This document shows, in pieces, positions 20,591 through 59,955 of a stretch of 64,000 nucleotides of DNA. The notes below the pieces were generated by a model. It saw nothing but the letters and a program-made list of their open reading frames with translations, searched no databases and was not told the DNA's origin. Location: positions 51,710,001 through 51,774,000 of the forward strand of contig NC_086108.1 in NCBI RefSeq assembly GCF_963921235.1, read 5' to 3'. This DNA is from Mobula hypostoma (Eukaryota). Position 1 is the first letter of the stretch. Each line of letters opens with the position of its first letter. The position numbers and the translations under genes were made by a program.

Positions 20591-23451
20591 TGCAGCGTTA
20601 ACTGTAGCAAGACTTAAATCATCAAAAGCACTATCTTATTCATGTTATTTGTACCTTACTGTATGTGAATGGAAGTTCATGTCAGTGATTCTCTACTACT
20701 TTAGTCAGTACTGTTGAAAAGAGGCTGCATTGGCCACCCAGCATATCGTTCAGTTAGGGAAAAGCACATTAGGTATTAAAATGATGAGACAATCATTTTG
20801 AAAGAGTGTACCAACCAAATCAATTCACTAATGGTATAATGAAGGATAAAATTAAACTTGTTTGCTGCTAGAGAGAATGGCCATTACTGAAAAGAAGCAT
20901 GTTTGCTCTCACTCCTCCAAAAAAAAAGGCAGTTATGGTAACAGTTTTAAAGTGCAGAGTGGTTTTATAATTATCACATTGCAGTTAAAAATATGGTGTT
21001 GGTGCAACATTTTAGTCAGTTTTAATCTGGACTAGATTAAGGACATCAGAGAAGCAGTAAAGAGTTGATGTCAATTTAACTGCTTGATATCACTCTTACA
21101 AATATCACCTTTTTTTACCTTTTAGCTGTTTAAAGCCAATTATCAAATTGTCATGTTGTGATTTGAACTCATTTCCTGGTTTATTAGTCCAGGCCAACTG
21201 ATTGCTATTCCATTAACATAGTCATTATATCACTTCATCCAACCGTTAGAACTAAAGAATATCAATCAGCCATAGCTTGTTTCCTGTTGTAAGACCATAG
21301 CTAATTGTACCACAGATCCATTCAGTGACTTGTGTCCCATTGTTGATCTGATATCAGTAACATTTTTTGGGTTAGGTGTTCCAGATGTCTACTCTGTGTG
21401 AGTGGGAAAAGGATTTATTGATCTCACTCTGTGATGGCCTAGCTCTGGACTGGGTAGCTTCAAGACTTTGTATTAATTTTAAAAAGTATGATGGAATTAA
21501 CTTGTTTTCTTACTTGCTAATTCACTGAGAACTTACAAGTAGCATAGCAGAGGAATGACCCCTTTTCATTTTGGTAGTCAGTAATTATTTTAAGCATAAT
21601 TTAAGCACTCCCTGGGTGAAAAGACATAATGTACTTCATCTTCTGAACCATTTGAGAACCATGCCTTAACTAACAGACTCAAAAGAACACCCCCTACTGT
21701 ACTTCCATTTCACACAACATCCATCCTCCCGGCCTCTCTACACGAGGTCGTCCAATTATGCCAGTGATTTAGGAATTATGTAAGGTTTATTGCAATGGGT
21801 TTCAACGCCGCAATGATTGATATTGATCCGACCCAGATTAGGATGCTTAAACTCTGATTTGATTAATATTTAATATCCATCGGAGAGGAACCATCTAGCC
21901 AGCGCCAAATTGGATTTAAACTCGGGTACTGCGTTTGAGATTACAACATTTTGGCAGGTTGAAATAAAATACTTATCTGTGGAATTATGTGAAAAGAAAA
22001 TAGGAACACAACATTAAAAGGACTTGTTCTTTGCAGCCTACCCCTAAATAGGGTGAATTCACGGTTACATAGATCTGCATCATCTGCTGAGAGAAAGTAG
22101 CTCTTTCGCTCGGCTGACAACTTAAATTACGCCATAAGAATTTGATCAGTATTAGCCCTGAAATCGGTGCGCTTAAGGCACGATATTTAACAAGTACTCC
22201 ATTTAATCAGAATTAGAGTTTAAACATTTTTTAAAAATGTCAATGACAGCGCGGCATTTGAAAGTTACAGTTACTATATCCCACCTCAGCAATGTGTAAT
22301 GAAATGAATTTGCCAAATGCGTAATCTGGACGACAGATTGTACCCTGCGCTTTTACGGGGATTGTGGTCCGGTATTATTTTTTAGTGTATAGCTAAATTA
22401 TGCGCGCATTGTTCCAAAAGAGTTAACAAAGCCCATGTTGCACCTTGTAACCCAGACACCTCGAATTAATAGGAATACAATATCTGATACACTGAAACAC
22501 ATAATTGGAGACGAGTAGTTTTCTTTGCCTTGGTTATTCTTAAACTAACAATATCAAAGTGAAATGTGTTTTAGGCTGAAGAAACAGTTGATTCAAGCAT
22601 GTGTTAATTTCCAGTAAACACATTATACTGCAGAATGTAAAATTGGGATTTTCAAATTAAGCGGTTGTTGTCACTAGTTATAGAAGCAAAAATTGGTTTC
22701 AAATAGTTTTGAAGAAGTGGGACTTCGCAGTAGTTGCAGGGATAGTGCTGTTTAGAACTAAACAGCCCCGGATTACTCAGTTAAACTTGATTTATCAAAT
22801 CTTTCTCTAAAACCGTGTTTATTTCCGCCTATTTAAGATACCGGCCGAAATTTGTATTTCAGAGTTACTCTCACTGCTGGCTAATTTAGTATTCAACTTG
22901 AAGTAGGCGAGTATATTCGCCGAAGCATGAAATTGCATGTATATTTGCACAAAATAATGTATAAAGATAATTGTTCCATTCTTTATACTACAGGATGACA
23001 ATGGCAGTTGTGATTCTATGGAGTACCATTTACTGATTTGTCTAAAATGAACAATATGGAATTAAAATACAACAATGGCGGCTTGATTCAAATGATGGAA
23101 TATTATGCTTATCTTATTCGCCACTTAGGAGTGATAATTATAAAATGGCCGGATTGTGCGATCGATTCCGATCATAATAAGGATCTGCGTTTTTCCAAAT
23201 ATTCTGTAGCAGTATGAGTAAAAGATGGTGTGTACGAATGCTGAACATATACCAAAGCATTGCTACAGAATACCGAATTATGCTGTCAGGATCTCTGTTC
23301 CAATGATGCTTTTACTTCGGCCCGAATGGCCTGTGGAGAGTGAACGAGTTTACAGTACAGGTTGTCGATGTCAGACTGGTCTTGGTAAGTATTCCAAGGT
23401 GTCTCAGATTGCTGTATCTTTCATGAACTGAGACTTAGTTACTGTACTTTA

Positions 23452-23577
23452 GAGCAACGCACAAAATGCTGGAGACAGCATCTATGAGCGTGAATCAACA
23501 GTCGACGCTGCGGGCTGAGTCCCTCCTTCTGTACTGGAAAGCAAGGGTGGGGGGGGGGGGCGGCGACGCCAGAATAA
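23452..23577 (-). mobile_element. Penelope-like 3'-tail fragment
   Basis: Homologous to the reverse complement of 46170-46300; 12-bp TSD TACTGTACTTTA at 23440-23451 and 23578-23589. Confidence 0.75.
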
Positions 23578-26500
23578 TACTGTACTTTAAATGTTTCTAA
23601 CGTCTGACTGGCGCCCTCAAAATACTTAAAAATATAGCACACCGATGGAAGATCTGCGCGCAGATTGAGTGAACTCAGCCCGCTATTCTGAAGACTGTGT
23701 TGACAGCGCGACAATAAAATTAGGTTCTTCCAAGTCAAAATCAGTTCTGGATAAGTAAGGATCGCAGATTCTTGTGCGCAGTATAAATATAACTAAGAAA
23801 TGGAGACGGGGGCGATCTACCTCTTGTGTCTAGAACGGCATTTTTAACCTAATAATCCCCGGTTCACTGTTCTCCGGGGCCCCCATTGTAACAGTGTACG
23901 CCAATACCACTGGGTAACCATGGTTAAATAAATCAAATGCATGCACTCTTCAAGCAAAGATCTCTAAAAGGGTCAAACAATCAGATTTAATCTAAACGGG
24001 TTGCTTCAAACACGTGGGAGAGACGATGAACATAAGCAATGTTGGTCTTAAATTTCTATTCATAACCCGCAGGTCCTTTTCCATAATGAACAACATACAG
24101 TGATGCTTAACACAGCGAGAGTAAATTAGCTGAGTAGTTTTCCCCAACAAAAGAAAACTTTTTTGCTAGTACTGTAGACGATTCCCGTTAAAGTCCTTCT
24201 GATTTTTGTAGAGACAGTCTTCCCAGACATGTTGGAACGGATTATGTAATCTGAGAAGTGGCTGGACAGTGAATTCAACCTTTCTTCTGGAAACGTCGCC
24301 TCTGGCAGTGCAATGTGCAATCGCATTTTGTTTTTTTTTTGCTATTGTATGCATGTATTTAATATTAAGCAGCATTAAATCTTGTAGCTATTTTTAGGAA
24401 GAGTTGTGCATTGCAACAAATTCATAGAGTATTAATCTCTTACATTTGGCGTTAATTATCTTCAGTGTTTCCCTTATTTAACCTGGTAGTAAATTGCATG
24501 GTTACCTTTTAAATTTTGTGTTTAGAAAAGTTCAGGGCGGAGCGCGGAGGGTCGTAAATCGCCTTACATTAAACGGATTCCCCCAAATCCTGGTTCTTAC
24601 CAAGATATCGTCAGATAACTGTGAAAAAAAAATCGCTGTCGTTTTGCTGGTAAAAAAAATATGCGATTGACACACTGCAGTTTGTTTCATCCCGTGTCCT
24701 CGGGTTTTTCAATTTGATGAAATATTTGTAGCTTTACTGCATAAATCATTTTAAGTGGATGACGTTATCAAAGTCAAACAATTACGCATATTTTTAAAAT
24801 GACAATATTGATAGAGAACGATGGAGACAAAACAATCTGTCTTCAGGTTAAATAATTCGTGAGATGTGTTGCTATCAAGATTTACAATCGGGTAAAGAAA
24901 CATTCAAAATTGTAACACCGGAGACAATTGCAGGTGTTTGTTTTCTGATCTGATAACCCTTGAGAGTTTTTTATATATAAAAAAGGAGGCCATAAGAAAT
25001 ATATCTTCATTCAATAATCGACTTAATGTATTTATTTATTTTCCTCGTTTGCTATAAAAATTTCTAAATTTATAATGAAAATTAACTATTATCGCCCGAA
25101 GAGAATATTTGTCAAGCAAAACACTCTTCCATGTGGCATCTTTAAGCGCAGGACTGGTTAATTGCGTATTTATCAACAAATGTTGATCTATATTATGATG
25201 ATATTTACTAATTGATGCGGACAATCATAAATGCGACCTAACTTTAAAACAAATCAACCTTTGTTCTGAACATCAAAGAAAAAAATGTTGGAATTGCAAA
25301 TAAAATAAAATAATCTCATTCAGGTATATTTGTTATTCTGGGGTTCTCGAAAGTCTCGGCATGCTTAAAATCAAATTGGTTAATTATGTACCAGCAGAGA
25401 GAACCTTGGGTACGATATCAGAGTAATAGTTTTTAGACGACCTAAGCACCATCATATCAAATGTATAGACAATTTGAAAATCACCATTACCGCTTTGTTT
25501 TATGCGTGCATTTTGTGCAGTATGTAGAGTAATGTATGCATAGATGTCCTTGCTTCTGCGAGTGACTAATGACAATAACTTCATTAACCCAGTTTGTGTG
25601 CACTGTAGATATCTAATGCCAGGTTATTTGAAACTTTATCACCTCAGTTAGGAATGGAGAAATAACAACGTGTGAAATGGCTAGCTGCTGCATTATATTC
25701 GGTAAACACAGCGCATGTATTGATCTGACGGCAGGGCTGGCCACGTGAGCTCCCCTTTATTAATACCTGTTCGGCCTTTCTGATAAGAAAGTATCTTTTG
25801 TACGATTGGCATAGTTTCTTTAAAAATATTTGGAACATGCTTTCTAATACCCTGGCAACCTAAAGATGCGTTCAATGTGGGCTGGTTGGTGTATGTGGGA
25901 ATTTACAAATATGCACACAGAAGTGTACGTGAATGTGCAGATATAAGTACTATATGTGAATGTTATCCCTCTACTTAGCAATTATACAGTATACACAGTT
26001 TGGACAATTGCAGAAAGATTTAGCGATTCACCTACCTGTCTTCTGATTTACAACTCTTCGAATCCCGCACCATACTAACAATTTTACAGAAATCTCTTCC
26101 ACAAACATATCACAAAGAAATGAGTAAGCCTAGTTTTGGAGAGGTGTGAAGTAATCTATTTAGTCTCCATCTCTCACTATGAATGTTGTGATGATAACGA
26201 GACCTGCAGCAACACAGGCCATTTCATACATTCAGACAGATTCGCTAGAACAGGGGTTGAAAAATGCCTAGCAGTATACTGTAGATAATCGTCCACTCGT
26301 GGTCTTCAGCTAGAATATAAAATGCGATGTTAACAGAAGTGAAAAGGGGGGATGTTTTCATTAACGGGGTATAGTTCTGACGTGCGAGGGGATCATGTCC
26401 AAAAATATAGAATGCACAGTGATGTTATAATCAGTTTTGTTAACAGTTAGACTGAACAGGATTTATCAAGGATGTGTGCTATCTTATCTGCTTGTCACCA

Positions 26501-29500: not shown

Positions 29501-31279
29501 TAAAATATTCTCTGCATTTTGGCGAAGCCAATTAGATTAATTTTCGTCTTTCAACTGTAAACAGAAAGAAACTTGCAACAATGTGGGACTTGCTGAGTTC
29601 CTCCAGCGTTTTGTGCGTGTGTTTCTTGAAGCGATCGAGATAGTTTCTGTGTTACTCTGCTTCATCAATGTGAATTTTGAAATTATTACATTTTTGTCGA
29701 TATTTTGCTGAACGATATCTGCAAAATTACTTGAGGGTCTCAGAAATAAATATGATAATTATTTTTCATACTTTTAAAAGACCACGTCGACAAGACTCAG
29801 GGGGCACATTATCTTTACAGGCTTTTGATGAACACAAGATGTGAGCGCGCCTGGTGACTAAATAGATAAGCTAATTGCCATTAAAAAAAACCTCAATTGA
29901 AATAATATATACAGGGGTTAACCCATAGAATGCAGTTGTCCATCAATGAATAGTTGATAACACATAATCGTCACATTATTTGTTATATTAAACAATTTTA
30001 ATAAATAAAGAATAAGGTTAAATATTAACGACTCCAGTATGGAAGTATCCCGGAATGAAACCATATATAATAGTGCATTCCCAATATCTGCTTTTCCTTT
30101 TTGGAGGGAGGGCGGTTAAACTAACCCTTTGTATCATAATCCTCAAAGCGACACTTTGCAACATTCCACTGCCGTCCTTCCAGCTGACGGGACACCTTAG
30201 CAAGACAACTACTAATATTAGTGAACCGACAGGCTTGTTTTGACTGCCTGTGATTTCTGATTTGATTCCACATATAAAGTGATTCCGGAATTGAAGCCCG
30301 GTGTCTCCTTGCTTATACAGACACTTGAATATCTGAAACGAAGAAGCGATCTAAGGAATTCAATCATATAAAGATATTTTATGAAGAATTTCCTCTCGTT
30401 TCCAGTATCTGCGTTTTCTTCTTATTTCATTCAAGTTCTGTAGTCAAAAGCATTTGAAAATAAAAATGGAACAAAATGCCTAAGACCAGTAAAAATTTAA
30501 ATCTTTAGTTGCTTAGACTGGTTAGTATCATGTGCATTTTCATGGTCGCTTTATCAGCGTTTAAAGTAAAAGTCAGAGATACCTGTGTTCAGTGTAGTGG
30601 GAAAGTCTACCAAGGCAAATTTGACATGAATCTTGTTAGGCGGAGCATATCAGACCGTATCCCAATAGATCCCGCCAATGATTAATCAAATCCATTCTCA
30701 AAAGTGCGGAATTACACTTAAGGTTATTAGTAAGAAAGCTAGTTATTACATACCGAGCGTGTTAAATGCTATTCCATTTTATAAAATACTATATTAACTT
30801 TGAATTAAAATAGTGTCACTGACTTTAAATCTGTTCATTTCATCAATGCGAAGTGCGTGTTTTCGGGAGGGAAGGGGTGATTTCTGTGGTACCACCGATG
30901 TACCCACGCCTATAGTTCGAGTAATAAGGCGTTTTGACATCTGGTAAATTTCTTCAAAATAAAGGTTATAACGCGATTTGAAAAATAAACACGCACGTCG
31001 GTTGGAGAAGCAATTAGAAACCGTACAATATCAGGTTAATAAACTTCCTGGCGAGTTCATTTGACGTTTCCTTCCGCGTCTATCAGTCCGACTTTAACAA
31101 ATAATGGGGAGAGGAGGAAAAGAAGGGGGGAAGGGTGCGTTTTCTCCAAACAGATGTTGACAGAAGTCTCAATTCAATGATATTTGTAGATGAAAAAGAC
31201 AGACATATTGCACTGGCACCGAACTGGCCGCCCAAATCTAAGAAAATGGTCTGGAGGGAAACTAATGATGAAAAAAAAA

Positions 31280-37104: not shown

Positions 37105-37374
<270 letters not shown>

Positions 37375-38062
37375 TAGAGAAAGCGATAGAGAGGAAGGAA
37401 GTTATTTTGACAAGTTACTTACTCAGTGTTGCTACCCACATTGTTACCTGTGCGGTTTTTTTGCCTTCTACTAAAGAGTGGCTGAATACTAAATTAACCT
37501 CCCTCCAAATTATTTGCTCACAGTTAAATAAATCACACAATAAAGCGATATTGCCACAGACTGATTGGATTCGGCGCTGACTTATTACTGCATTATTTCA
37601 TGTGCAGTGAGTATAATATTTATCACTTTATGTGCGCAATACCCAAAAATGTGCGTGATAAGAAGGACTTATCAACAACGTTAATTTTGTCTCTGTACCT
37701 TGTTTACTCTCTAATTTTCCAACATTGCACAATCTCGATCGGATTCCAACGTTCGGTACATCTTCTGGCGACTTTAACACATCAAATGTTAAACGATGTC
37801 CATAATTAGTGGCTGATGTTGCGACGAGCCTTTATGTTCTGAAGACTGATAGCATATATGAAGTGAGATTCTGAATGAGAGTGACTGGAAATGGCCGCTT
37901 AGTGACCTGGCTATCAGGTACTATTTTCATTTCAAAAGTAAATACAAAGCCCGGAGTAAACTGTAAGAACGGCAACAGCGAATGTCAAAGGCAGGGAACG
38001 AACAGGAACGAATATACACATTTACAGGCAGTCAAACAGACAACACAACGTTGGCCAGTTTT

Positions 38063-38283
38063 TAAACGCAAACAACAGGAATTCTGCAGATGCTGGAAAT
38101 TCAAGCAACACACATCAAAGTTGCTGGTGAACGCAGCAGGCCAGGCAGCATCTATAGGAAGAGGCGCAGTCGACGTTTCAGGGCAAGTCCTGACGAAGGG
38201 TCTCGGCCTGAAACGTCGACTGCGCCTCTTCCTATAGATGCTGCCTGGCCTGCTGCGTTCACCAGCAACTTTGATGTGTGTTG
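38063..38283. mobile_element. Palindromic Penelope-tail-derived insertion in PRRX1 intron 2
   Basis: Perfect 77-bp inverted arms at 38106-38182 and 38207-38283. Flanking direct repeat GTTGGCCAGTTTT at 38050-38062 and 38280-38292. Homologous to the 3' tail of the element at 45176-46305. Confidence 0.85.
38186..38221 (+). ncRNA. Minimal type I hammerhead ribozyme motif
   Basis: AGTC-CTGACGA-AGG gtctcgg CCT-GAAA-CG-TC^GACT. CUGAnGA and GAAA boxes are intact, helices I and II can form, the cleavage triplet is GUC, and helix III is reduced to palindromic ACGT. Confidence 0.75.
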
Positions 38284-38635
38284 GCCAGTTTTGTTTTGCT
38301 CAAACATTATTCCTCTGTGCTGGAGATCTAGTGTGTCAAACACTACAGTCGAAATAATTGTGCCTTGGTGTTACATTTAAAGCTCCTTTTCAACTTATAT
38401 ACCAAACATTTAAAAATTTCATGTGAATTTACTTGCGCGCAGCGTAAATGGTATCAATTGTCCGTTCTTAAAATTAATTATTTTGCACTTGGATATAGAT
38501 TCATGATAAAATAGCTGAAAAAGTATACTGGTGCCACACAATGTGGTACCGTGGATAAACAACATTAGTAAAAAAAAAAGTGAAACAGAGCAACACACCA
38601 CGATACATCCATTGTAAAAGATGCATTTTAAACTG

Positions 38636-38768
38636 TGAACAAGAGAAAATCTGCAGATGCTGAAAATCCGAGCAACACACACACAATGTTGGAGGAACTC
38701 AGCAGGCCAGGCAGCATCTATGGAAAAAAGTACAGTCAACGCTTTGGTCGCAACCCTTCGGCAGAACT
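38636..38768 (-). mobile_element. Penelope-like 3'-tail fragment with degenerate hammerhead
   Basis: Same family (CTGCAGATGCTG...GCAGGCCAGGCAGCATCTAT...CAGTC). The minus strand reads CTGCCGAAGGG...AAAGCGTTGACTG, so the core is mutated. Confidence 0.75.
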
Positions 38769-41543: not shown

Positions 41544-42829
41544 GTAATCTCTTATTGGTAATATATATATGTAATAACCACATTGCCCGGAAATTGCCAT
41601 GATATAGTACTGCCAGTCTCTCGTGAACGTAGCCTTCAAAGTTCAGAATTGACCCCCCCAATATGGTACTCTACATAATATTGTCAATAAGCTCATTAAA
41701 TTTGATGTTGTATCCACAATTCCATATCATGCAGCCTAGTATTAACTCCGCACTGTGAGCAATATGAATTTGATCAACAATTTCATTCTAAGCACAGCTA
41801 AAATTTGATATCCAGAACCCAAGAACACTTAGTATAGTCTTATGGTTAATAGATAGTACGAATGTAATATGTAAGTTACCTAAATGCAATAATATATGGA
41901 AAAAGGTGTATACAGAATAATAGACAGCATTATTAGATTTGTCAGGGTGACTGTATTTCAGCTACCTTGGCTGCCAAGCTTATTGAATATCTCCATAAAA
42001 TGGAAGGTGTTGTAGAAATTAGAATGCATGAAATGCCTATTTTTATAACGACAATTGGTAAAATCACAAAGACAAGGCAATTCAATGGAATTACAAAATT
42101 AAATACCTACATGCCAGGGACTGATGATGTCACTGCAGTGTGTGCTCGTTCTCATTATTGTAGAGAATGTGTTGTGCTTTGTAAATTCAGACTGAGAAAT
42201 ATTTCTGAACATTTTCACATTCTAGAGAAAACCTGACAGAAAGTTTGAATTAAATTCAGTGTAGACCCAAATGGGAAACTTCCTTGTCCTCAGTAATGGC
42301 CCTAAATGGCCTAAGAAAGGTGCACCGGTGCTACTTGCTGTTTTTCTTCCGAAAGTTGTCAGGACATAGCCAGTATTCTTTGCTTCAGCTAATCAGGAGC
42401 CAAAGCAATAAGCATGTCAGTAGGCATATTTCTTGGCAAGCAAGAAATCAATATCCCCACAGCAATTTATGATGGCAGGAAAACAAAGCCATCATTTTGG
42501 CAGCAGACATTGCTGTGGTAACAAGGAACTGAGTTATACATGGACTTGGTTCCCATTTGGAACTGTACAATAGACCAAGTATGGTATATAAAGCTCGAAA
42601 ATATTTTGTATCAATTATCAAATTATTGATAATGATAATAAGTTAATGCCAGAGAATTATTCAACTCTCTGGCATTAACTCATCTCCAGAATATCATTTT
42701 ACTGTTCTTGAAATTAAAATTGTCTGCTCTGTACATACATATTTATTAAGATAAATTAAAAAGAGATAAGGAGAATATTGAAAGTCCGTCTGCTTTCTGA
42801 AAGTCCTCTGATTTCTGAATTTTTTCCCC

Positions 42830-44325
42830 GTTTAGAAAATAGTCTATCCTTTATTCATTCTGCCAAAATACCTGATTATACATTTCCCTATACCATATTC
42901 CACCTGCCTTTTCATTGTCCATTCTCCTAATTTGTCCAAGACTTTCTGCAGAGTCCCTCATCCAGATTATTAACAGATAACATGAAATATAGTGGACCCA
43001 ATACCAATCACAGCAGAATACCATTAGCTACCCGCAGCCAACCAGAAAAGACCCCTTTATTCCCATTCTTTCCTCTTGCCAGTCAGCCAGTCTTCTATCA
43101 AAGCTTTCTTGTAATATCATGGGCTGTTATCATGTTTAACAGCCCTAGGCGTGACACCTTATGAAAGGTCTTTTGAAAATCCAAGTAAACAACATCCGCT
43201 AACTTCTTCCGTTACTTCCTCAAAGAATTCCAATAGATTAGCCAGGCAAAATTTCCCATGAAGGAAACCATGCTGATCACCCGATTTTATCCTGCACCTC
43301 CAAGAATCCTGAAGCCTCTTCCTTAATAATGGAATCTAACATCTTACTGAAGTGTGGCTAACTGGCCTATAATTTGCTGTTTTTTGCCTCCCTCACTTCT
43401 TAAAGGATGAATCAGAATCATGTTTAATATCATTGATATATGTCGTGAAATTTGTTGTTTTGCAAACAGCACTACAGTGCAAGACACTATAATACTACAA
43501 ATTACAGTAAGAAATATACATTTAAAATTAATTAAATAAATAGTGCAGAAAGAGAGCAGAAGTAATTAGGTAGTGTTCATGGGTTGGTTCATTGTCTGTT
43601 CAGAAATATGACGGTGGAGAGAAAAAGTGGAGCAACATATGCAATTTTCTGGAATCATTCCGAAATCTAGTGATTTTTTAAAGTTCACTACTAGTGTCTC
43701 CACAATTTCTTCAGCTACCCTTTTCAAAACCCTGACATGTAGTCCAAGTGGTACAGTGATTTTATCTACCCTCAGACCCTAGAGCTCCTCAAGCATCTTC
43801 TCCTTAGTAATAGCAACTACCCTCAATTGTGCCTTCTGACACTCTCTGGAGTCTTCCACAGTGAAAACTGGCGCAACGTATTTATTAAGTTTGTTCACCA
43901 TTTCTCTCCAGCATCATTTTCCAGCACTCCTATGTCTATACTTAGCTCTGTTTTACTCTATATATCTGAAATATCTTTTGGTATCCTCTTTTATGTTATT
44001 GACTAGATTACCTTCATCTATTCTCTCCTTATTGCTTTCTTAGTTGCCTTCTGTTGGTTTTTAAAAGCTTCTCAATCCTCTAGCTTCCCACTAATTTTTG
44101 CTATATTATATGCTCTCTCTTTTACTTTTATGCTGTCTTTGACTGCCCTTGTCAGCTACGGTTGCCTCATTCTCCCTTTAGAATACTTCTTCTTTGGGAT
44201 GCATTTATTCTGCACCTTCCAAATCACTCCCAGAAACTCCAGGCATTGCTGTCCTTCTGTCATTCTTGCTAATGTCCCCTTCCAATCAATTTTGGCCAAC
44301 TCCTCTCTCATACCTCTGTAATTCT
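42830..44325 (-). mobile_element. Decayed, internally deleted CR1-like LINE with a nested LINE-tail insertion (~43390-43625)
   Basis: Reverse complement of the 9350-11000 subfamily (ttcctcaaagaattcc, ggaaaccatgctga, gtcttccacagtgaa). The insert begins atcagaatcatgtttaatatc. Confidence 0.75.
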
Positions 44326-45175: not shown

Positions 45176-46305
45176 AAATGCTATTCCCTTTTCTCAGTTC
45201 CTTTGACTCCACCACATCTATTTTTAGGATGAGGCTTTCCTTTCTAGGACACCAGAGACATCCTCCCTCTTCAAAGAACAGCGTTTCCCTTTCTCCTCCA
45301 TTGATGCTGCTCTCACCCACATCTCCTCCATTTCCCAGACATCTGCTCTCACCCCATCTTCCTGCCGCCTTAACGGTGATAAGAGTTCCTCTTGTCATCA
45401 CCAACCACCCCATAAGATTCTGCATCCAATACATCATTCTCCACAATGTCCATCATCTCCAAAGGGATCCTACCACCAAACACATTATCACTTCTCCCTA
45501 CTCTCCACAGGGATCACTTCCTCCATGATTCCTTGTCTATTCATCATTCCCCACTAATCTCCCTCCCAGCACTTATTCCAGCAAGTGGCCAAAGTGCTAC
45601 ACCTGCCCATGCGCCTCCTCCCTCACCTCTGTTCAGGGCCCCAAACAGTCCTTCCAGATGAGGTAACACTTTCACTGTGAATCTGCTGGGGTCACCTGTT
45701 GTATCCGGTGATCCACAAGTGACCTCCTTTACACTGGTGAGGCCCAACATAAAATGGGGGACCTCCTCATTGAGTACTTCCACTCCATCCACCAAAAGAA
45801 GATCATCCCAATGGCCCAACATTTTAATTCCAATTCCCATTCCTGTTCTGACATGTGTTTCATGGCCTCCTCTTGTGCCACGATGGGGCATCCTTGGGGT
45901 GGAGGAGCAACACCTTATATTCTGCATAGGTAGACTCCAACCCGATGGCATGAATATCGATTTCTCCTCCTCTCTTCTATTCCTCACTCTGGCCTTTTAC
46001 CTGTTCTTGCCAGCTTATCACCTCCCCTGGTGCCCCTCCTCTTTCCCTTTCTTCAAATATCAACTCTCCTGTCCTATCAGATTTCTTCATCTCCAGCTCT
46101 TTAACTTTCCCACCCACCTGGCTTCACCTATTACCTTTTAGCAATTCTCCTTCCCCTCCCTCTTCCTTTTTAATCCAGCATCTTCACCCTTCATTTCCAG
46201 TCCTGAAGATGAGTTTCAGCCTGTAACATTGACTGTTGTCTATTTACTTGGATGCTGAATTTTTGTGTGTGTCACTTTGGATTTCCAGCATCTAGTGAAT
46301 TTCTT
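45176..46305 (+). mobile_element. Decayed Penelope-like retroelement, 3' half (GIY-YIG endonuclease region plus tail)
   Basis: 45670-45790 translates FHCESAGVTCCIR*STSDLLYTGEAQHKMGDLLIEYFHSI, a degenerate form of the VIY..C..C...YIGET.R....R..EH GIY-YIG motif. C-terminal EEQHLIF..G.LQPDGMNIDF is followed by a pyrimidine-rich UTR and a hammerhead-like tail at 46198-46235. Confidence 0.8.
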
Positions 46306-46381
46306 GAATAAATAAGAAGGCGCTAGCGAGATAAGCGATGCTTTACAGGCTGGAAAACAAAACTACTATTGTTATATTAAC

Positions 46382-46552
46382 AAACAACACAAACAACAAC
46401 ACACATCAAAGTTGCTGGTGAACACAGCAGGCCAGGCAGCATCTCTAGGAAGAGGTACAGTCGACATTTTAGGCCGAGACCCTTCGTCAGGACTAACTGA
46501 AGGAAGAGTTAGTAAGAGATTTGAAAGTGGGAGGGGGAGGGGGAGATCCAAA
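46382..46552 (-). mobile_element. Penelope-like 3'-tail insertion with antisense hammerhead motif
   Basis: Near-identical to the arm at 38106-38182; 14-bp TSD ATTGTTATATTAAC at 46368-46381 and 46553-46566. Confidence 0.85.
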
Positions 46553-46689
46553 ATTGTTATATTAACTGCACTTTTTCTGGACTGCAATCACTGCAATCCA
46601 CAGCCTGTAATTTCTCTTTCGGAGTTTTGCTTTTGAACCATCTGTACGACCTGCCATTTTTGTGGTATCTTGAAGGATTCAGCAAAATG

Positions 46690-47470
46690 GAATCTCGAGA
46701 ATGCAGGTATGGCCACGGTAGCCGCTGCTGGAGCAGACGTGGACTGGATTGAAGTGACGTGACCCCGGCCCAAGAGCAAGAATGGAATCAATGTTTGGCC
46801 ATCGCTGGAGCAAACCTGGACCCTGATTAAAGCAGTGGCGCCTGGGCTCGAGAGTGAAAAATGAACTGATGTTTGGCCATTACTGGACCAGCGGTGCCTG
46901 GACTTCAAGAGTGAAAAACAAACCGATGTTTGGCCATTACTGAAACAAACTTGGGGCTGGATTGAAGCAGTGGGGCCTGGGTTCGAGAGTGAAAAATGAA
47001 CTGATGTTTGGCTGATTTAAGTGCTGAGCTGGATGACAAAGGTCAAGGTGTCAAGGTTGAGGGTGAAGACCAAACCGTGTTCCACTCACTACTCCGGGAG
47101 GTTTAGTTAGTGCTGATCTGATTGCGTGGCTGTGACCTGCAGTCATCAGACTCCCAGACTGGGCTTCTCTTGCCTCAGCATTGAAAGGGCTCTGTGGCTG
47201 TGGCCTGCAGCAATCGGGCTGCTGATAGGCTCCGTGGCTGTGGACTCACTTTCAGGGACTCTGCAGTTCATGTTCTGTGTGTTATTTGTTCACTTTTTGG
47301 TGTTTGCATGATTTGTTCTTTTATTTTCACACAGTGGGTGTTTGACCGTCTTTGTTATGTGGGGTTTTTTTTTAATGCATCTATTGTGACTCTTTGTTTT
47401 GTAGCTGCCTGCAAGAAGATGAATCTCAAGTTGCATATAGTATACTTACTTTGATAATGTACTTTGAACT
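46690..47470 (+). mobile_element. Non-coding SINE-like element with internal tandem repeats and a Rex/Babar-type 3' tail
   Basis: Three ~58-78 bp units starting ATGTTTGGCCAT (46791-47010). Tail CAAGAAGATGAATCTCAAG...TACTTTGAAC resembles the reverse complement of 54709-54782. Confidence 0.6.
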
Positions 47471-47479
47471 TGTTATTTA

Positions 47480-47553
47480 GAGCAACACACATGAAATGCT
47501 GGAGGAGCTTAGCAGGTCAGGCAGCATCTGTGGAAATGAATAAACAGTTCTCT
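47480..47553 (-). mobile_element. Penelope-like 3'-tail fragment
   Basis: GCAACACACA...GCAGGTCAGGCAGCATCT; 10-bp TSD TTGTTATTTA at 47470-47479 and 47554-47563. Confidence 0.75.
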
Positions 47554-48129
47554 TTGTTATTTATATTTGTGATAATTCAGCATTTAGTTTTTGAAATGGA
47601 TATTTACCAATTTTTTAATGCAAAATGCTATGTTGAAAATTCCATGGAGTTGAATCAGAATCAGAATCAAGTTTATTATCACCGGCATGCGATGTGAAAT
47701 TTGTTAACTTAGCAGCAGCAGTTCAATGCAATACATAATCTAGCAGAGAGAGAAATAAAATAAAATAATAATAAATAAATAAACAAGTAAATCAATTACA
47801 GATTTTTGTTTAACACTCAAACAATATAGATTAAAGCTGACAGCTAGGCGAATAAGAAACTGGGTTGAGGTAGTATGTGAGAAAGTTAATTTAACTTGCA
47901 ACCATACTGGAAGCTGATAGCTTATTCACCTTTTGTACATATTGCAAAATCCATCCGAATTGCTTAAATATTGGGTACAAAGTGGTTAAAATATTACAGA
48001 GCTGAACTTGTTCATACTTCTGAATGTTTGCTCCCACTTTTCAAAAAGTAACAAAAGAAATCATTACTGGCACAAATGTTACTAATATTACTCCATGATC
48101 TTTTTCATTGTGGTCGATATCTTTGTAGA

Positions 48130-48950
48130 CCAAGATTCAAAGGTACATTTAATGTCAGAGAAATGTATTGAATATACATCCTGAAATGCTTTTTCTTTGC
48201 AACCATCCACCAAAACAGAGGAGACCCCCCAAAGAATGAATGACAGTTAAATGTTAGGACCCCAAAGTCTCCCCCCAGCTCCCCTCCGTCCCGCGCATAA
48301 GTGGCAGTAAGCAACAAATCTCCCTCCCCCCACCGTCAAAAAAAGCATCGGCACCTGCCACCGAGCACTCAAGCGAGAGCAAAGCAACAACAAAGACACA
48401 GACTTGCAGTTACCCCAAAGACTACTTGTTCACCGGTATTCAACATAACACAGGCTCTCTCTCTCCCTAATAAGGGAGAAAGAGGTGTCTCCGTTTCACA
48501 GTGAGAGGGTAGACATAACAAACAACTCACTGGTTTATTATGTTAAAAGTCCATTGCATCGCTTTTTCCAAGCTCTGTGCCCAAAGATCTCGGGTCTCTG
48601 GGCGCACAGCCAAAGATCTTCCATCTCCCAAGACACACTGATCTCCTGCCCGGACACCGACCTCCGATACCACACCACCGCACCCCACCCACCCCCTGGT
48701 CTCCAGAGCCACGAATTCTCGGTTCCCCAAAGGTGAGTGAAGCTCTTAGGCCAAGCCTTTGGCGGCCGAATAACGGCCATTCATGAAACCCCAAGAGCAG
48801 GTCCCATTCCAGCAAAGAACCATAGTTAGCATCTAACTCCAGGTCAGGGTCTTCAAAAGAATCCTGAAGGGGTAAAATAGAGATATTAAAGATGGAAATA
48901 GAGCTGTTTCCAAAGATGCAAACAAAGGAGTCCCCATTAGGTGCCATTAA
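48130..48950 (-). mobile_element. Non-coding interspersed repeat (SINE-like, LINE-type tail); partial second copy at ~49290-49500
   Basis: The left end caagattcaaaggtacatttaatgtc resembles the reversed LINE tails. 48741-48948 is visibly duplicated at 49290-49498. Confidence 0.55.
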
Positions 48951-51275
48951 CCCTCCTAAACTCCTCCCCTTGGCTGCCCAACTAATGAATAGAATGGAAA
49001 ATCAACCTATTTATATATACTAGAATAACCAGTAATCTGAGAACCCAGTTAATCTTATTTAAGATGACTGGATTTTGTATTTTAACTGTTTCTCTGAAAA
49101 CTAATGATTCCAAACTCAAATGAAAATAATGTTTAGCATTAGGAAATCAATACTGTTAACAGGATTGTCAAAGAAAATAAGTACACTTGGTGACCACTTT
49201 ATTTTTACTTGTAGATTGGAGTTCCTCATAACTATTTTCCACTATAGCCTTGTGCTATGCCATATTTAATTCTGAGTTACCTAGAGCTAAGCTCTTAGGC
49301 CACATCCTTGGCACGTCAGATAACAGCCAGTCGTGAAACCCTGAGAGCAGGTCCTATTCCTGCAAAGAACTTAAGTCAGCCTGTAACTCCAGGTCAGGGT
49401 CTTCAAAAGTACCCTGAAAGGGAAAAACAGAGTTATTAAAGATGGAACTAGAGCTGTTTCCGAATACGCAAGCAAAGGAGTCGCTGTTTAGCGCCATCAT
49501 AACTAAGCTCCACCCTCTTCTTTATATTAGTCTGTTAACATTGTCCTGCAGTATACAGCTTTGTTTTTTCAGTATCAACCATAAACCAAATTTGGTGTCT
49601 TCTACAAATATCCCCTATTTTAAAGGGTAAACCAGACACTGCTTTCTATCACTGCGGCACTTAGGATCTAACTTTTCACTTTCTCTTCTATTCTCTTATA
49701 TCTTTATTTTTGTGGACAACTTGATAAGATCCACAGATCTCTTTCCTACACATCTAGCCCTGCAGCTTTGAAACTGGCTGGAGAATGGTTTAGAAGCTTG
49801 GCTTGTCGATTGGCTTCCTCCCTTTGTGCAGTAATAGGTCCCACTCTCAGTAAAGTCAGATGATTATAAGGATATCTCTCCACGACCCTTACACATTTTA
49901 GATTATGTTTCAGAGCAAAAGATTAATCCCTGAAAAGTTACTTAATAAAATATGAGAACATCTTGCATTAATGTAACACCTTTAATAGCAAAACATATTC
50001 TGAGAAAGTTTTAAAAAATGGTTATGATGAAATGAAGTTCAGATAATTATTTAGTTGTATTTCATATAAAAACTGTCTATATTCTAGTTCGGTTTTCCTT
50101 AATCTATGTATCCATGTTGGGTTGAAGTCCCATGTTCCTATTCCTGACCAGCTTCTATCCTGTGGAACAATACATTATTGTGCATAATCAGTAATAACAT
50201 ATGATCTTTGAAATAATAGTAGATTATGATTTACAATATTTATCATCGCTATATCATCTATTGTTACTATTAAAAGTGCTTAAGGCACATATACATATTC
50301 CTAACCCATATATGCTAAGAATTTAACATAAGGAAATTGTTCCTTTCTTTGGTCTTTTCTTCATACATGCACTATTCTTTAAAGCTTGATATTACATAAT
50401 CACTATTTTTGGATTTACCTCCTCATTTCAATTAGTTGACCGGGAATATGAGCCAACGGACCATCTTCATTGTGCATTTTATATGAGTCGCACAAAGCCA
50501 AATAATTTAGATTTAACAATGTTGATTAGCAACTCTAAATATGAAAGGGAAAAGGGCATGTTTAAAGACTTAATTTGCCTTATAATCAAAATGTTGTACT
50601 TTATTATATGAAAATCCTATCTAGAGTTATTTTATTTTAATAAATTACTACTTCATCAGCTCATTCATTTCTACAAATGAACTTCGTCTCATTTTCACAG
50701 TTAAGATAAAATTCCTACTGACAACAATATTACCAATAGGGTCAATAAATACAAATTGGGATAGAGAAGAAATTTCACACTGATAATTGCTTAATCCAAT
50801 GTTGTTTTGCAACAAAGTTCCACCAGTTTTGCTGGAGCTGGTAGCAACTCAGGAGTAAATCGGCCATTCTCTCAGCTAATCCAATATGGTAGACAGGGTC
50901 CTTGTAACCCGCAAAGCATAACACGAAAATAAATGTTTCAGTACTTTGCATCCGACTTACTAATATGACTTCAGCACGTGGACTCACGAACCATTGTTCA
51001 TCAAAACATACTGGAATGTTAGGTCTGACACAGGGTCTCATCAGCCTGCTTTATAATGAATCAGTGAATAGTCTGACATTTCTTTTCTCCCCTAATAAAC
51101 AAAAGTATTGGCTTCCATTCAGGCTTTCCTTACTTGTGTGACTAAAATTTATTGAGTGCCATTCCACAAGATCCAACAATGCATTTTGTTTGAATTAATT
51201 ATTTTTATTTTCAATTTGAATTTTAGTCCCTGTTTGTGTTCACTGTTTTCTTTTTAATCTCCTTTCTTCAAACAG

Positions 51276-51340
51276 TGCCACCAACCCTTTAGTATTCAAC
51301 ACAAGTGATCATTTTCTTATATGAACCTGGGTTGTGAATG
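51276..51340 (+). CDS. PRRX1: Candidate PRRX1 alternative cassette exon giving a short OAR-less isoform
   Basis: Long polypyrimidine tract plus acag ending at 51275. In phase 2 it reads (G)ATNPLVFNTSDHFLI*, with TGA at 51322-51324 and donor G|GTAACG at 51341. No transcript evidence. Confidence 0.5.
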
Positions 51341-53530: not shown

Positions 53531-54680
53531 GCCAGAGTCCAGGAAAGTATAGACCAATGAGTCTTACTTCAGTGGTTGGTAAGTTGATGGAGAAGATCCT
53601 GAGAGGCAGGATTTATGAACATTTGGAGAGGCATAATATGATTAGGAATAGTCAGCATGACTTTGTCAAAGGCAGGTCGTGCCTTACGAGCCTGACTAAA
53701 TGTTTTGAGGATGTGACTAAACACATTGATGAAGGTAGAGCAGTAGATGTAGTGTATATGGATTCAGCAAGGCATTTGATAAGGTACCCCTATCAAGGCT
53801 TATTGAGAAAGTAAGGAGGCATGGGATCCAAGGGGATATTGCTTTCTGGATTCAGAACTAGCTTGCCCACAGAAAGCAAAGAGTGGTTGTAGACGGGTCA
53901 TATTCTGCATGGAGGTCAGTGACCAGTGGTGTGACTCAGGGAAGTGTTCTACTCTTCGTGATTTTTATAAATGACCTGGATGAGGAAGTGGAGGGATGGG
54001 TTAGTAAATTTGCTGATGACACAAAGGTTGGAGGCATTGTGGATAGTGTGGAAGGCTGTCAGAGGTTACAGTGGGACATTGATAGGATGCAAAACAGGGC
54101 TCAGAAGTGGCAGATGGAGTTCAACCCAGATTAGTGTGAGGTGGTTCATTTCGGTAGGTCAAATATGATGGCAGAATATAGTATTAATGGTAAGATTCTT
54201 GGCAGTGTGGAGAATCAGAGGGATCTTGGGGTCAGAGTCCATTGGACACTCAAAGCTGCTGCACAGGTTGACTCTGTGGTTAAAAAGGCATACGGTGCAT
54301 TGGCTTTCATCAATCGTGGGGTTGAGTTTTGGAGCCGAGAGGTAATGTTGCAGCTATATAGGACCCTGGTCAGACCCCACTTGGAGTACTGTGCTCATTT
54401 CGGGTCGCCTCACTACAGGAAGGATGTTGCCTGGATTATGGAGCATGTCTTATGAGAATAATGCCTTTTCTCCTTGGAGTGATGGAGGATGAGTGGTGAC
54501 CTGATAGAGGTATATAAGATGATGAGAGGTATTGATCGTGTGGATAGTCAGAGGCTTTTTCCCAGGGCTGAAATGGCTAGCACGAGAGGGCACAGTTTTA
54601 AGGTGCTTGGAAGTAGGTTCGGCTCAGTATGGAGGGCCGAAGGGTCCATATTGTGCTGTAGGTTTTTTATGTTTCTCATT
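53531..54680 (+). mobile_element. CR1-like LINE 3' portion (younger subfamily)
   Basis: Contains SLTSVVGKLMEKI, QHDFVKGRSCLT, SKFADDTKVGG and YRTLVRPHLEYC; same subfamily as 19410-20590. Confidence 0.9.
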
Positions 54681-54708
54681 TGTATGTTCATGTTCAACGT
54701 TGAAAACT

Positions 54709-56640: not shown

Positions 56641-57051
56641 GCTGGGTGGCATGACTCATTGGGCTGGAAGGGCCTGTTCTGCACTGTATCTCTAAATAAA
56701 ATAAAATTAATTTCAAGAAAATGGACTTGGGAGTCAGAAGCAATGTTTGAAGATGTTACAAAGCTTATGAAGATGGCTGTTCACTTCTAGATAATGTAAA
56801 TTGTGGTGAAATGCCCAGTAGCTTTGTAGAAGAAACTTAATGAGTGAAGTGCGGCAAAGGAATTTTTGGGATGAATGATATGGGGAGACAGTAAGTTATA
56901 AATGGTATGATTTGGGTGAAAAGAGTTCCATAGGCACATATTCTTAAAGGAAATAGCATAAGTTAACATATTTCAAAAACTTATGGGTGGTTTTGTTTTT
57001 AATATAAAAGCATAGATTATTAAATCCAAGAGTTCAAAGCTTAATAAGTTT

Positions 57052-57790
57052 TTAACATAGAAACATAGAAAACCTACAGCACAGTACGGGCCCTTTGGCC
57101 CACAATGCTGTGTCGAATACAGTATGTACTTACTTTAGAAATTACCTATGGTTACCCATAGCCCTCTATTTTTCTAAGCTCCATTTACCTATCCTGGAGT
57201 CTTTTAAAAGACCCTATCTTATCTGCCTCCAGCACCGTTGCCGGCAGCCCATTCCACACACTCACCACTCTCTGCTTAAAAAACTTACCCCTGACATCTC
57301 CTCTGTACCTGCTCCCAAGCACCTTAAAACTGTGCCCTCTCGTGTTAGCCATTTCAGCCCTGGGAAAAAGCCTCCGACTACCCACATGATAAATGTCTTT
57401 CATCATCTTACACACCTCTATCAGGTCACCTCTCATCCTCTGTTGCTCCAAGGAAAAAAGGCCAAGTTCATTCAGTCTATTCTCATAAGATATGCTCCCC
57501 AATCCAGGTAACATCCTTGTAAATCTCTTCTGCACCCTTTCTATAGTTTCCACATCCTTCCTGTTGTGAGGTGAGCGGAACTGAGCATAATACTCTACAA
57601 GTGGGGTCTGACCAGGGTTCTATATAGCTGTAACATTATCTCTCGGCTCTTGAACTCAATCCTACAGTTGATAAAGATCAATACACCGTATGCCTTCTAA
57701 ACCACATAGTTAACCTGTGCAGCAGCTTTGGGTGCCCTATGGACTTGGATCCCAAGATCCTCGTGATCCCCCACACTGCCAAGAGTCTTA
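57052..57790 (-). mobile_element. CR1-like LINE 3' portion, inserted in an older + strand CR1 remnant (~56650-58320)
   Basis: ORF 57185-57553 reads ERVQKRFTRMLPGL...LFSLEQQRMRGDLIEV...WNGLP; the (AACATAG) tail is on the left. Confidence 0.9.
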
Positions 57791-58908
57791 CACCAGCAAC
57801 CTAAGGATCTAGTTAGATTGGGACACTATGGACAGTTCTGGATAGCATACACTTCAGGAAAGATATAACAGATGTAGAAGGGGTACAAGGGAAGTTTATT
57901 GAGATGTTACCAAGGATGAGGGACTTCAATTATAAGAAAAATCTAAAAAAAATTGTTTTGTATTTGAGAAGGTTCGGATTTGACTTCACTGTGGCTTTTC
58001 AAGTGATGCAACGTTTTTGCATGATAAACTAATCTCTGCTGAATGAGCCAGTCTCCAAAGGCTATGGGTTTAAACTGCTTTGCAGAAGGAAAAAGGAGAT
58101 AAGGAGATTTATTTTTCATTGGCTTTTAAGATCTGGGATACTCAGCCTAAAAAGGAAGTTGATTCAGTGAGTGATTTTAAGCAGGTTGGTCAATTTCTTA
58201 AGAATAAGAAACTGTGGGATTACAACAAAAAGAAAGATATGAGAACAAATATGACTGCTATTTCAAAGAGCTAACACAACAAGATGGGCCAAATATCTTC
58301 CTTCTTTGTTGTAAGTGTCCATGATTCTCTGCAGTAGTATAATCTCAGTATCCTGAAAGAGAATAAAAGTTCTCTATTTAAATTTAGACTCTATGGTTTC
58401 AATTAAAATCTTGTTCATGTTTAGAATAATTACTGGTGCTGATAATCATAACATTGATGCACCCACACATAGACAAACACAGACACAGCAACACGTGTAA
58501 ATGATTCTAATTCTAGTGCTGTGCTATGCAATCTGAAATGTATTTATTCAACTGAGACTAAAGTTATTAATTTGCCTTGTCAATTATCTGATGTCAATAG
58601 AACATTATACCAGTACATCAAGGGTAATTTCCACATTTTCTGTGCACAACCTTTCTAAACAGACTGTATACACTTGAGGATCAACCTTACCCTTCAGCTA
58701 GTCTCTTTGGCCGTACATCCTATTGGACTCCATAAATCCATTCCACAATTCCTCTGTACACAATAGGTATGTATCAAATCAATCACATTAATATACATCG
58801 TACCCATAATACCTTGATGTAAACACCATTAATCAGTAACACTCAAGCAATGTACATTGGTTACTTTACAGGAGGCATGTAACAACAGGCATCATTTCAT
58901 ATCCATCT

Positions 58909-59002
58909 ATGATTTCCATAGATGCTGCCTGACCTGCTGAGTTCCTCCAGCATTTTGTGTGTGTACTTTGGATTTCCAGCATCTGCAGACTTTCTGGTGA
59001 TT
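58909..59002 (+). mobile_element. Penelope-like extreme 3'-tail fragment
   Basis: ATAGATGCTGCCTGACCTGCTGAGTTCCTCCAGCA...TTTCCAGCATCTGCAG; duplicated ATCATTTCATATC at 58891-58903 and 59003-59015. Confidence 0.75.
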
Positions 59003-59955
59003 ATCATTTCATATCTATCTGCATAACCTGTGTCCTCCTGCCTTCTTTCTGTCTTAGAAACACCCACATAATTATACACAAAATACATGTGTATTATTCC
59101 CCTCTTTCTGAATGTTTGTTACCTATCATTGTTCCTTAAGAAAATAAAGCAAATGTTTATTCAACTGAAATAAGTTACAATTGAGAAAATAAGAATGTTA
59201 TTCTAAAAGTAAAAGACAGAGGTAATATCATAGCATCTAAGCAATTTTAATGTCTTTCATAATTATTTTTATGCCAATGATGAAATTATGTGTATTCATG
59301 ATTAATTAACTACATTGAGCAAATATAATCATTGCTATCCAGTGTGACAACCTGTCACAATGGCAAACTTTATTGTTTAAGAACTGTGTTGGAAGTTATG
59401 GAAAGTAAGTGAAACAGATTTAGCATAGTGTTTCAAGTGAAAAGTAAAGAATATATGCAAAGACAATGTTTTGGAGAACACAGATCTATCAAGTAGAATC
59501 CTTGCATTAAGTTAAGAACCAAGCTTGTGGTTGATATTTCATGTTGATGGCATTGATTGATTGCTAGATGAAATATGCCCTCTTGGGGCCATTTAGTTTC
59601 AGTGCTGATGAGATCATAAGTAGGTAAGACATACTGTATGTGTAGGACTAGGCCATTTGGTTCTTTAAATCTGCTTTACTAATGATCAAGATCATGGTTA
59701 TGCTCTATCGCAGTGCTATTTTCTTGCATTTTCCTGCACTATGCCCTTGACCCTCCCCCCCAAGAAACAAACTACAATCAATCTCTTGTTCGAATAAACT
59801 CAGCAACTACAGCTAGCACAATCTTCTGGAAGAGAGAATTTCAAAGATTCATTTCCATTGTGTATGAAGAAGTCAACTCTGACTTACTGTATGTTTTCCT
59901 TCAATTCAGTAATGACTGGCATGCCCTTTATTCTGAGACTGTGACCCCTAGTTTT

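Follow-up and report, generated by a model that had tools for sequence, protein, structure and literature searches.

A 64-kb stretch of the genome of the ray Mobula hypostoma (assembly GCF_963921235.1, contig NC_086108.1, positions 51,710,001 to 51,774,000; 38% GC), hereafter the window, raises the question of what determines the ends of very short retroelement insertions. The window contains a family of short pieces related to the 3' end of a Penelope-like element (PLE), five of them bounded by target-site duplications (TSDs), together with a longer, decayed relative that encodes a GIY-YIG endonuclease. An earlier note, made from the letters of the window, had offered two explanations: extreme 5' truncation of a Penelope element, or a non-autonomous RNA resembling a short interspersed element (SINE) or a retrozyme, with ends set by a hammerhead ribozyme. 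We consider it likely that the pieces are ordinary target-primed, 5'-truncated insertions of a Neptune-type PLE, accompanied by a probable class of run-off products ending 32 to 30 nt upstream of the predicted hammerhead cut, and that the ribozyme normally leaves the template uncut.

Short Penelope-like insertions in the window

Copies were identified with blastn and with a profile built from nine copies. The hits of this self-trained profile had E values from 1e-38 to 6e-8, and the reversed window, used as a control, gave nothing below E 6. Each of the seven pieces listed in the earlier note aligns with the tail of the 45176-46305 element or with its neighbour, and two subfamilies (A and B), also seen in that note, are visible among the copies. 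The copies and their duplications are given below, with ends numbered relative to the predicted hammerhead cut (minus, upstream; plus, downstream).

46382-46552, minus strand: subfamily A copy; 5' end at -90; slipped TTG/TTTG repeats after the short 3' end (+66)
46494-46458, minus strand: hammerhead of the 46382 copy; its GAAAC box is altered and the cut falls at 46463|46462
46368-46381 and 46553-46566: exact 14-bp TSD of the 46382 copy
38063-38190, minus strand: left arm of a head-to-head pair, subfamily A; starts at about -11 to -19; 3' end of the long class, with a 43-nt tail
38186-38283, plus strand: right arm of the pair; 5' end exactly at -32; short 3' end, overlapping the TSD by 4 nt
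38050-38062 and 38280-38292: exact 13-bp TSD around the pair
38630-38768, minus strand: older copy with a B-like tail (the 38636 copy); 5' end at -32 against the long copy; long 3' end
23452-23577, minus strand: subfamily B copy; 5' end at -74 (counted by eye); 16-nt internal deletion; short 3' end
23440-23451 and 23578-23589: exact 12-bp TSD of the 23452 copy
47480-47553, minus strand: subfamily B copy; start at about +1 (by eye), preceded by a few letters without a match; short 3' end
47470-47479 and 47554-47563: exact 10-bp TSD of the 47480 copy
58904-59002, plus strand: subfamily B copy (the 58909 copy), starting at about +12; long 3' end
58891-58903 and 59003-59015: exact 13-bp TSD of the 58909 copy
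29591-29625, plus strand: 35-nt fragment (the 29588 piece), starting at about +34; boundaries uncertain
4956-5086 (approximate), minus strand: further B-type copy, old and degraded, extending to about -110 to -130; weak match (E 0.021)

All five duplications quoted in the earlier note proved exact and directly adjacent to their pieces. The note called all five AT-rich, but GTTGGCCAGTTTT is only 54% AT. An exact flanking repeat of at least 10 bp was found at five of the eight tested loci, against 4 of 3000 random intervals, and 29588, 38636 and the long copy showed no TSD at up to two mismatches. The presence of exact TSDs at both ends rules out erosion from longer copies for the five insertions, and their interpretation as separate events is supported.

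One amendment is needed: the piece at 38063-38283 consists of two arms in head-to-head arrangement rather than a single 220-bp unit, the entire pair being enclosed by one TSD (38050-38292). The two arms are identical at 80 of 82 positions, and each has unique sequence: one alone covers -32 to about -17, and only the other carries the 43-nt tail. A single fold-back thus cannot make the pair, and two separate priming events account for it better. The 58909 copy begins with an 8-nt fold-back (58904-58911), and the 5' end of the 38636 copy falls at -44 when it is aligned, more weakly, to subfamily A. Two B copies share their 3' junction context (23451|23452 and 47479|47480): read on the element strand, TAAA comes right after the element end, which hints that the endonuclease has a preference. 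Among the 15 joints listed in the contig analysis described below (four more exist), none corresponds to an empty site across 46382-46552, and insertion polymorphism of the 46382 copy is thus not shown.

A diverged Neptune-type relative

The longest copy in the window, and the broken reading frame within it, are the following.

45176-46305, plus strand: decayed, 5'-truncated Neptune-type PLE copy of 1.13 kb, with a long 3' end
45376-45930, plus strand: broken frame covering the linker and GIY-YIG domain, with three in-frame stops
46199-46235, plus strand: decayed minimal hammerhead of this copy; predicted cut before 46231

The copy comprises the end of the reverse transcriptase (RT), a Cys linker, the GIY-YIG endonuclease, a pyrimidine-rich 3' untranslated region, the decayed hammerhead and the tail; the RT core is absent from it. 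The best relatives of the 45376-45930 frame are two proteins, 54-56% identical, named from Hypanus sabinus, and 518 library proteins match the frame at E<=0.001. Among ten of these matches scanned with Pfam, GIY-YIG was detected in six and RVT_1 in four, several of them below the curated cut-off. Pfam returned no family for either broken frame, a word-index search for homologues among longer proteins found none in 190 candidates, a PDB sequence search with an eight-sequence profile gave no match, and exact-pattern scans of viral, metagenome and prokaryote genome contigs yielded no locus. One of the Hypanus sabinus proteins containing the endonuclease region of the element (P0004, 54% identity) is named 'mucin-2 isoform X2', and is probably a mis-annotated repeat.

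As judged from its domain order, with RT followed by a C-terminal GIY-YIG domain, the element is an endonuclease-bearing (EN+) PLE. The linker has the form Cys-x3/4-Cys-x2-Cys in the two nearest relatives, and the window copy keeps CxxC with Ser at the first Cys. A CX2-5CxxC linker before GIY-YIG is reported to mark the Neptune and Nematis clades, and to be absent from Penelope and Poseidon, in the available text of PMC8557442. An assignment to Poseidon was ruled out by the Cys linker, and the reported spread of Neptune among vertebrates suggests this clade rather than Nematis.

The earlier note had taken this copy as the parent of the short pieces. It is instead a diverged sibling, 72-78% identical to seven of the nine other copies over 41-113 aligned nt; it is closer to the 58909 copy (91%, 39/43), and shares only a 10-nt match with the 47480 copy. 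Its tail also carries an internal deletion of about 20 nt, and the other copies keep those letters. Being diverged and without these 20 nt or so of tail, it cannot be the literal source of the short copies.

The hammerhead motif and the ends of the window copies

The 3' region of the element contains a predicted self-cleaving motif, a minimal type I hammerhead that combines a stem I of 4-5 bp and a stem II of 4 bp with the two core boxes, and has a palindromic ACGU where helix III would be. The sole intact minimal core in the window lies at 38186-38222, with a predicted cut at 38217|38218, and the first paired base of stem I corresponds to -32. An Rfam search gave four matches at E<=5, none of them a hammerhead and all far below gathering scores. 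Folding of five sequences revealed no significant stability (z from +1.35 to -1.76), with the monomer predicted to fold into an inactive hairpin, and a two-copy cofold produced an intermolecular structure, yet not the active dimer, leaving dimerisation unsupported. The minimal type I form of metazoan PLEs is reported to be inactive as a monomer and to occur mostly as single motifs in probable truncated PLEs (PMC4209133, available text).

The ten 5' ends in the window fall at about -1055, -120, -90, -74, -32, -32, -11/-19, +1, +12 and +34. Seven of them lie upstream of the cut, six of these at or before the first base of the ribozyme, and the template of these seven was hence uncut at that site. 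Only one of the ten lies within 2 nt of the cut, which nine short ends spread uniformly over 170 nt would produce with p ~0.24. Two ends coincide at -32 (p ~0.01 for a preset 3-nt site; one of the two boundaries is fuzzy). The earlier note had placed the starts of three copies just downstream of the cut, in keeping with ribozyme-defined 5' ends. This holds for 47480 (about +1), but not for 58909 (about +12) or 29588 (about +34), and the proposal that the hammerhead sets the 5' ends is not supported by the distribution in the window. The alternative that the note had also offered, extreme 5' truncation, is supported for the short PLE tail units.

The 3' ends define two classes. Of nine that could be scored, five are short (about +66 to +69) and four extend 35-45 nt further (about +100-110). 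An optional 3' 'tail' of 30-40 bp is known in PLEs (PMC8557442), and has been traced to two internal RT start sites in vitro for a PLE of the anole (PMC11167929), both as reported in the available texts; the two classes seen here match this tail and these two start sites.

Loose ends across the genome

To obtain a genome-wide view, public contigs were placed once on a single 300-nt reference, 46323-46622 (subfamily A), using two DNA-like runs (X1 and X3) and two others presumed to be RNA. The ends of RNAs cannot be read from contigs, nor can copy number be read from contig depth. The placed contigs numbered 63,514 (X1) and 63,833 (X3), of which 3691 and 4454 fitted only partly, revealing that the family is very abundant in the genome. 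The six positions of loose ends listed for each run (896 more exist, and the order may not follow count) are the same in X1 and X3: 46397, 46457, 46554, 46492, 46493 and 46494. Position 46397 (+66) corresponds to the short 3' end and is among the leading positions in all four contig sets, 46457 reflects subfamily divergence, and 46554 reflects the family running on upstream, past -92. The other three form a cluster.

46492-46494, minus strand: -30 to -32, the first bases of hammerhead stem I; site of the loose-end pile-up

Positions 46492, 46493 and 46494 account for 131, 195 and 358 of the 3691 contigs in X1, and for 159, 200 and 468 of the 4454 in X3, which sums to 684 and 827 contigs, or 18.5% in each run; the remaining positions average about 7-8 contigs per position and direction. 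The cut site is not among the six positions listed for either DNA run. The earlier note had held that a smooth spread of 5' breakpoints, with no enrichment near the cut, would speak against its ribozyme proposal; no enrichment at the cut shows among the listed positions, yet the ends appear piled at -32 to -30 rather than smoothly spread. The site fits the consensus of initiator-like and of 3' splice-site-like motifs.

The sequences beyond these ends are informative on their nature. At 46492-46494 the loose ends agree with each other at 0.33-0.41, with a median loose end of 77-255, compared with 0.67-0.72 and 11-28 at the positions where the family continues. For 46492 and 46493 alone, the agreement (0.33-0.37) and median (171-255) resemble those of unique flanks. 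In a mixture simulation, pure flanks gave an agreement of 0.32-0.34 and pure continuation 0.75, from which the simulated family-continuing share is at most 0.3 for 46492 and 46493 and about 0.35 for 46494. Furthermore, the counts at 46493 and 46492 amount to 34-54% of that at 46494, where substitutions at 5-20% divergence predict 5-31%. The pile-up at -32 to -30 is hence probably real, though inflated by subfamily divergence.

The depth of the DNA runs 40-70 nt upstream of the cut remains at 0.51-0.64 of its peak. The runs guessed to be RNA stand at 0.08-0.21 of peak upstream of -40, and were dropped as evidence, given that transcript starts are not visible in contigs and that the subfamily make-up of these runs differs. 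One of them (X17) contains an opposite-strand joint, 46451/46493, at a depth of 1673, equivalent to a head-to-head pair with one arm from -31 and possibly located inside an abundant transcript; opposite-strand joints are also among those listed genome-wide. The only go-back joint among the 15 listed, 46483->46397, spans 87 nt and occurs in one contig per DNA run; it could represent a rare head-to-tail dimer of a short unit.

A model for the short insertions

These observations can be accommodated in a model in which the RT-endonuclease of the family would itself generate dead-on-arrival insertions, at high copy and in at least two subfamilies. The GIY-YIG endonuclease would make nicks in both strands of mostly AT-rich DNA, at a spacing of 10-14 nt as suggested by the TSDs, and the RT would start inside the element RNA at about +66 or about +100-110 and end early. 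The scattered 5' ends would then be ordinary early stops, and those at -32 to -30 would arise if the template RNA begins there and priming, presumably within the 5' copy of the pseudo-long terminal repeat (pLTR), takes place 100-140 nt downstream, so that synthesis runs off the template's 5' end. Where both nicks are primed, two arms could be joined head to head, and the ribozyme would normally leave the template uncut. Precedents for several of these steps are reported in the available text on other PLEs: both strands are extended by the anole PLE, for which a dimer model is given, mutating its ribozyme leaves insertion normal and RNA-seq reads that end at the cut were not found (PMC11167929), and the Penelope element of Drosophila virilis has an internal promoter in its pLTR (PMC2377424). 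A more specific version, which we put forward tentatively as somewhat doubtful, is that a transcript starting at the first base of the hammerhead, with RT starts 100-140 nt further on, yields 'strong-stop-like' run-off units, SINE-like without a SINE gene, and that two RNAs paired through the palindromic helix III could offer two templates to a dimeric RT and so give the head-to-head doublets.

Alternative explanations

Several points weigh against the run-off model. The pile-up lies at the point beyond which subfamily B no longer matches the subfamily A reference; longer B copies are therefore counted there too, and the consensus beyond 46494 is B-type. The mixture simulation used one template and an assumed divergence, and low agreement would also come from a mix of dissimilar subfamilies or from B copies that end slightly upstream. 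On a subfamily A reference, B-type copies that begin at the cut, as 47480 does, are invisible, and a smaller second peak at the cut, below about 131-159 contigs, may lie among the remaining positions. Across the bin of the cut, summed depth drops from 0.82 to 0.69 of peak in X1 (after a slide from 1.0) and from 0.76 to 0.61 in X3; it then rises again to 0.73-0.75, and three mismatches specific to the reference lie at the dip. The RNA start at -32 is deduced from DNA contigs, and the 5' pLTR with its priming site would be taken over from other PLEs, the window having no full-length copy. Lastly, for head-to-head pairs the available text of PMC3846280 prefers self-priming on an antisense template.

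Part of this evidence favours the strongest rival of the model, namely purely ordinary 5' truncation with a smooth decay in length, the pile-up at -32 to -30 being an alignment artefact of subfamily divergence. The location of the pile-up at the point where A and B diverge and the B-type consensus at 46494 both fit this explanation, as do the wide scatter of 5' ends in the window, heavy 5' truncation as a published norm (PMC8557442) and the occurrence of minimal hammerheads mostly as single motifs in probable truncated PLEs (PMC4209133), the last two from the available texts. Against it stand the counts at 46493 and 46492, which exceed the expectation from substitutions, the agreement at the level of random flanks, and the two window ends mapping to -32 with the significance and the fuzzy boundary given above. 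We regard it as unlikely, while giving it serious weight.

Alternatively, the class at -32 could be real and have another cause, either a splice acceptor or, at the foot of stem I, an RT stop, a template switch or a block to an exonuclease. Stem I pairing begins at -32, a pyrimidine tract and an AG precede the ribozyme in both subfamilies, and the 46382 copy has TACTAAC 17 nt upstream and two AG dinucleotides (46514-46492, minus strand); in Drosophila virilis, moreover, the 3' end of a Penelope intron is reported to map to the 5' end of helix I (PMC4209133, available text). Splicing to a constant upstream exon, however, would give a high-agreement loose end at 46492, where 0.36-0.37 was seen, and the would-be branch A (46509) is changed in about 59% of the X1 depth. 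The AG is also accounted for by stem I pairing, and it is kept most often by the copies (46494 > 46493 > 46492). This second alternative is improbable on balance.

The proposal that a SINE- or retrozyme-like RNA with a hammerhead-cut 5' end serves as the main template fares considerably worse. The 47480 copy, starting at about +1 with a clean TSD, speaks for it, along with two of the 12 listed junctions, which resume at 46463, adjoining the cut, the go-back joint of 87 nt (a single contig per DNA run), and PLE-pLTR-derived retrozymes reported in vertebrates, including one chondrichthyan, in the available text of bioRxiv 10.64898/2026.07.22.740005. With seven of ten ends upstream of the cut and one at it, no cut-site peak among the six positions listed per DNA run, DNA depth upstream still at more than half of peak, no tandem array in the window, and a motif that is minimal rather than canonical and predicted to fold as an inactive hairpin, this proposal is very improbable as the main source of the copies; a minor cut-derived class of insertions could be compatible with the data.

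Finally, that the short pieces are eroded long copies or chance similarities, to which the lack of TSDs at three older pieces (29588, 38636 and 4956) and the long copy would lend itself, has a negligible probability in view of the five exact 10-14 bp duplications at both ends and of profile matches that the reversed window does not reproduce.

Relation to known elements

The preferred reading, 5'-truncated insertions from a largely uncut template with a probable run-off class, agrees in most respects with what is described for EN+ PLEs of the Neptune clade in the available texts of PMC8557442 and PMC3846280. Shared features include RT, a CX2-5CxxC linker, GIY-YIG and a hammerhead in the pLTR, heavy 5' truncation, a 5'-truncated arm attached in inverted, head-to-head orientation, an optional tail of 30-40 bp, AT-rich targets, and TSDs near 10 bp (8-10 bp in Adineta, compared with 10-14 bp here). 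The ray units differ in being very short (35-220 bp) and dense (nine loci in 64 kb), and in targets that are not (TA)n microsatellites.

PAc, the Poseidon element of Anolis carolinensis described in the available text of PMC11167929, likewise has two internal RT starts downstream of a minimal hammerhead, located about 85-92 nt past the cut compared with about 66 and 100-110 nt in the ray. AT-rich nicking of both strands is shown for PAc, and is suggested by the TSDs in the ray. In PAc, ribozyme cleavage is dispensable for insertion and the template's 5' end determines how long the product is in vitro. Unlike the ray element, PAc belongs to a clade without the linker, and its open reading frame (ORF) begins within the hammerhead, an arrangement not established for the ray.

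The ribozyme motif resembles the minimal hammerheads of metazoan PLEs in its short stem I, core boxes, palindromic ACGU without a real helix III and mostly solitary occurrence (PMC4209133, available text), differing in that the ray motif is unscored by the Rfam hammerhead models, its activity being predicted. With animal non-LTR (long terminal repeat) retrozymes, as described in the available texts of PMC7229834 and bioRxiv 10.64898/2026.07.22.740005, the ray units share their short length, non-coding nature, type I hammerhead and relation to the PLE pLTR. Those retrozymes, in contrast, consist of head-to-tail tandem units of 150-450 bp, mostly with canonical ribozymes, and form circles, whereas the ray units are solitary or head to head, of differing length, and continuous with an element that carries an ORF. 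No head-to-tail tandem array with hammerheads is present in the window, though rare arrays may exist elsewhere in the genome, and the observed ends do not support units defined by cleavage.

SINEs have a fixed 5' head derived from tRNA, 7SL or 5S RNA, a shared 5' end, and a sequence distinct from that of their partner element. In the ray family the 5' ends vary, all of the sequence is collinear with the 3' end of the PLE, and Rfam detected no such head. Within the partial coverage of our literature search, no paper was found that describes the ray family or 5' ends clustered at a ribozyme edge, and the Squalomix preprint contains no mention of Penelope. The ray element is a largely ordinary PLE, with a probable preference for 5' ends at the upstream edge of the hammerhead as its point of interest.

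Other features of the window

The host gene in this region is GORAB, encoding the RAB6-interacting golgin, with an exon at about 7016-7480 on the plus strand that is 98-99% identical to proteins of two Mobula species. A further GORAB exon at 956-1375, plus strand, was assigned by eye only, and the old PLE copy at 4956-5086 lies antisense between the two. Immediately after the TSD of the 46382 copy, another repeat family occupies about 46570-47470, at a depth of 10-27 thousand in X1 and with a 57-bp internal tandem at 46833-46942; the 47480 copy lies at its far end. Decayed, mutually similar repeats (64-80% identity) are found at 9464-14368, 17920-18542, 19401-20586, 42808-44316, 53726-54676 and 57054-57791. 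By eye, their frames resemble the RT of CR1-type long interspersed elements (LINEs) and the region 15250-17136 resembles an L1/Tx1-type RT; Pfam gave no match for three tested frames of these LINE-like repeats. The window also contains a near-perfect 18-bp hairpin with a 4-nt loop at 42639-42682, with a weak Rfam microRNA match far below cut-off, and a 194-bp direct repeat (48740-48932 and 49289-49482) that is 83% identical, its units about 550 bp apart.

Implications for Penelope-like elements

How PLEs transpose and what purpose their hammerheads serve are still open questions, on which micro-insertions bounded by TSDs bear directly in that they record both ends of the reverse transcript. 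The ray copies agree with the two start sites described in vitro, and argue for a template that is usually uncut by the ribozyme. Should the pile-up at -32 to -30 fail a subfamily-matched alignment, the family would amount to routine repeat annotation. If it survives such an alignment, the 5' end of the RNA would be located and the pieces of 100-140 bp explained, and if these are run-off products, the many thousand copies in this genome would map the 5' end of the RNA and both priming sites in vivo.

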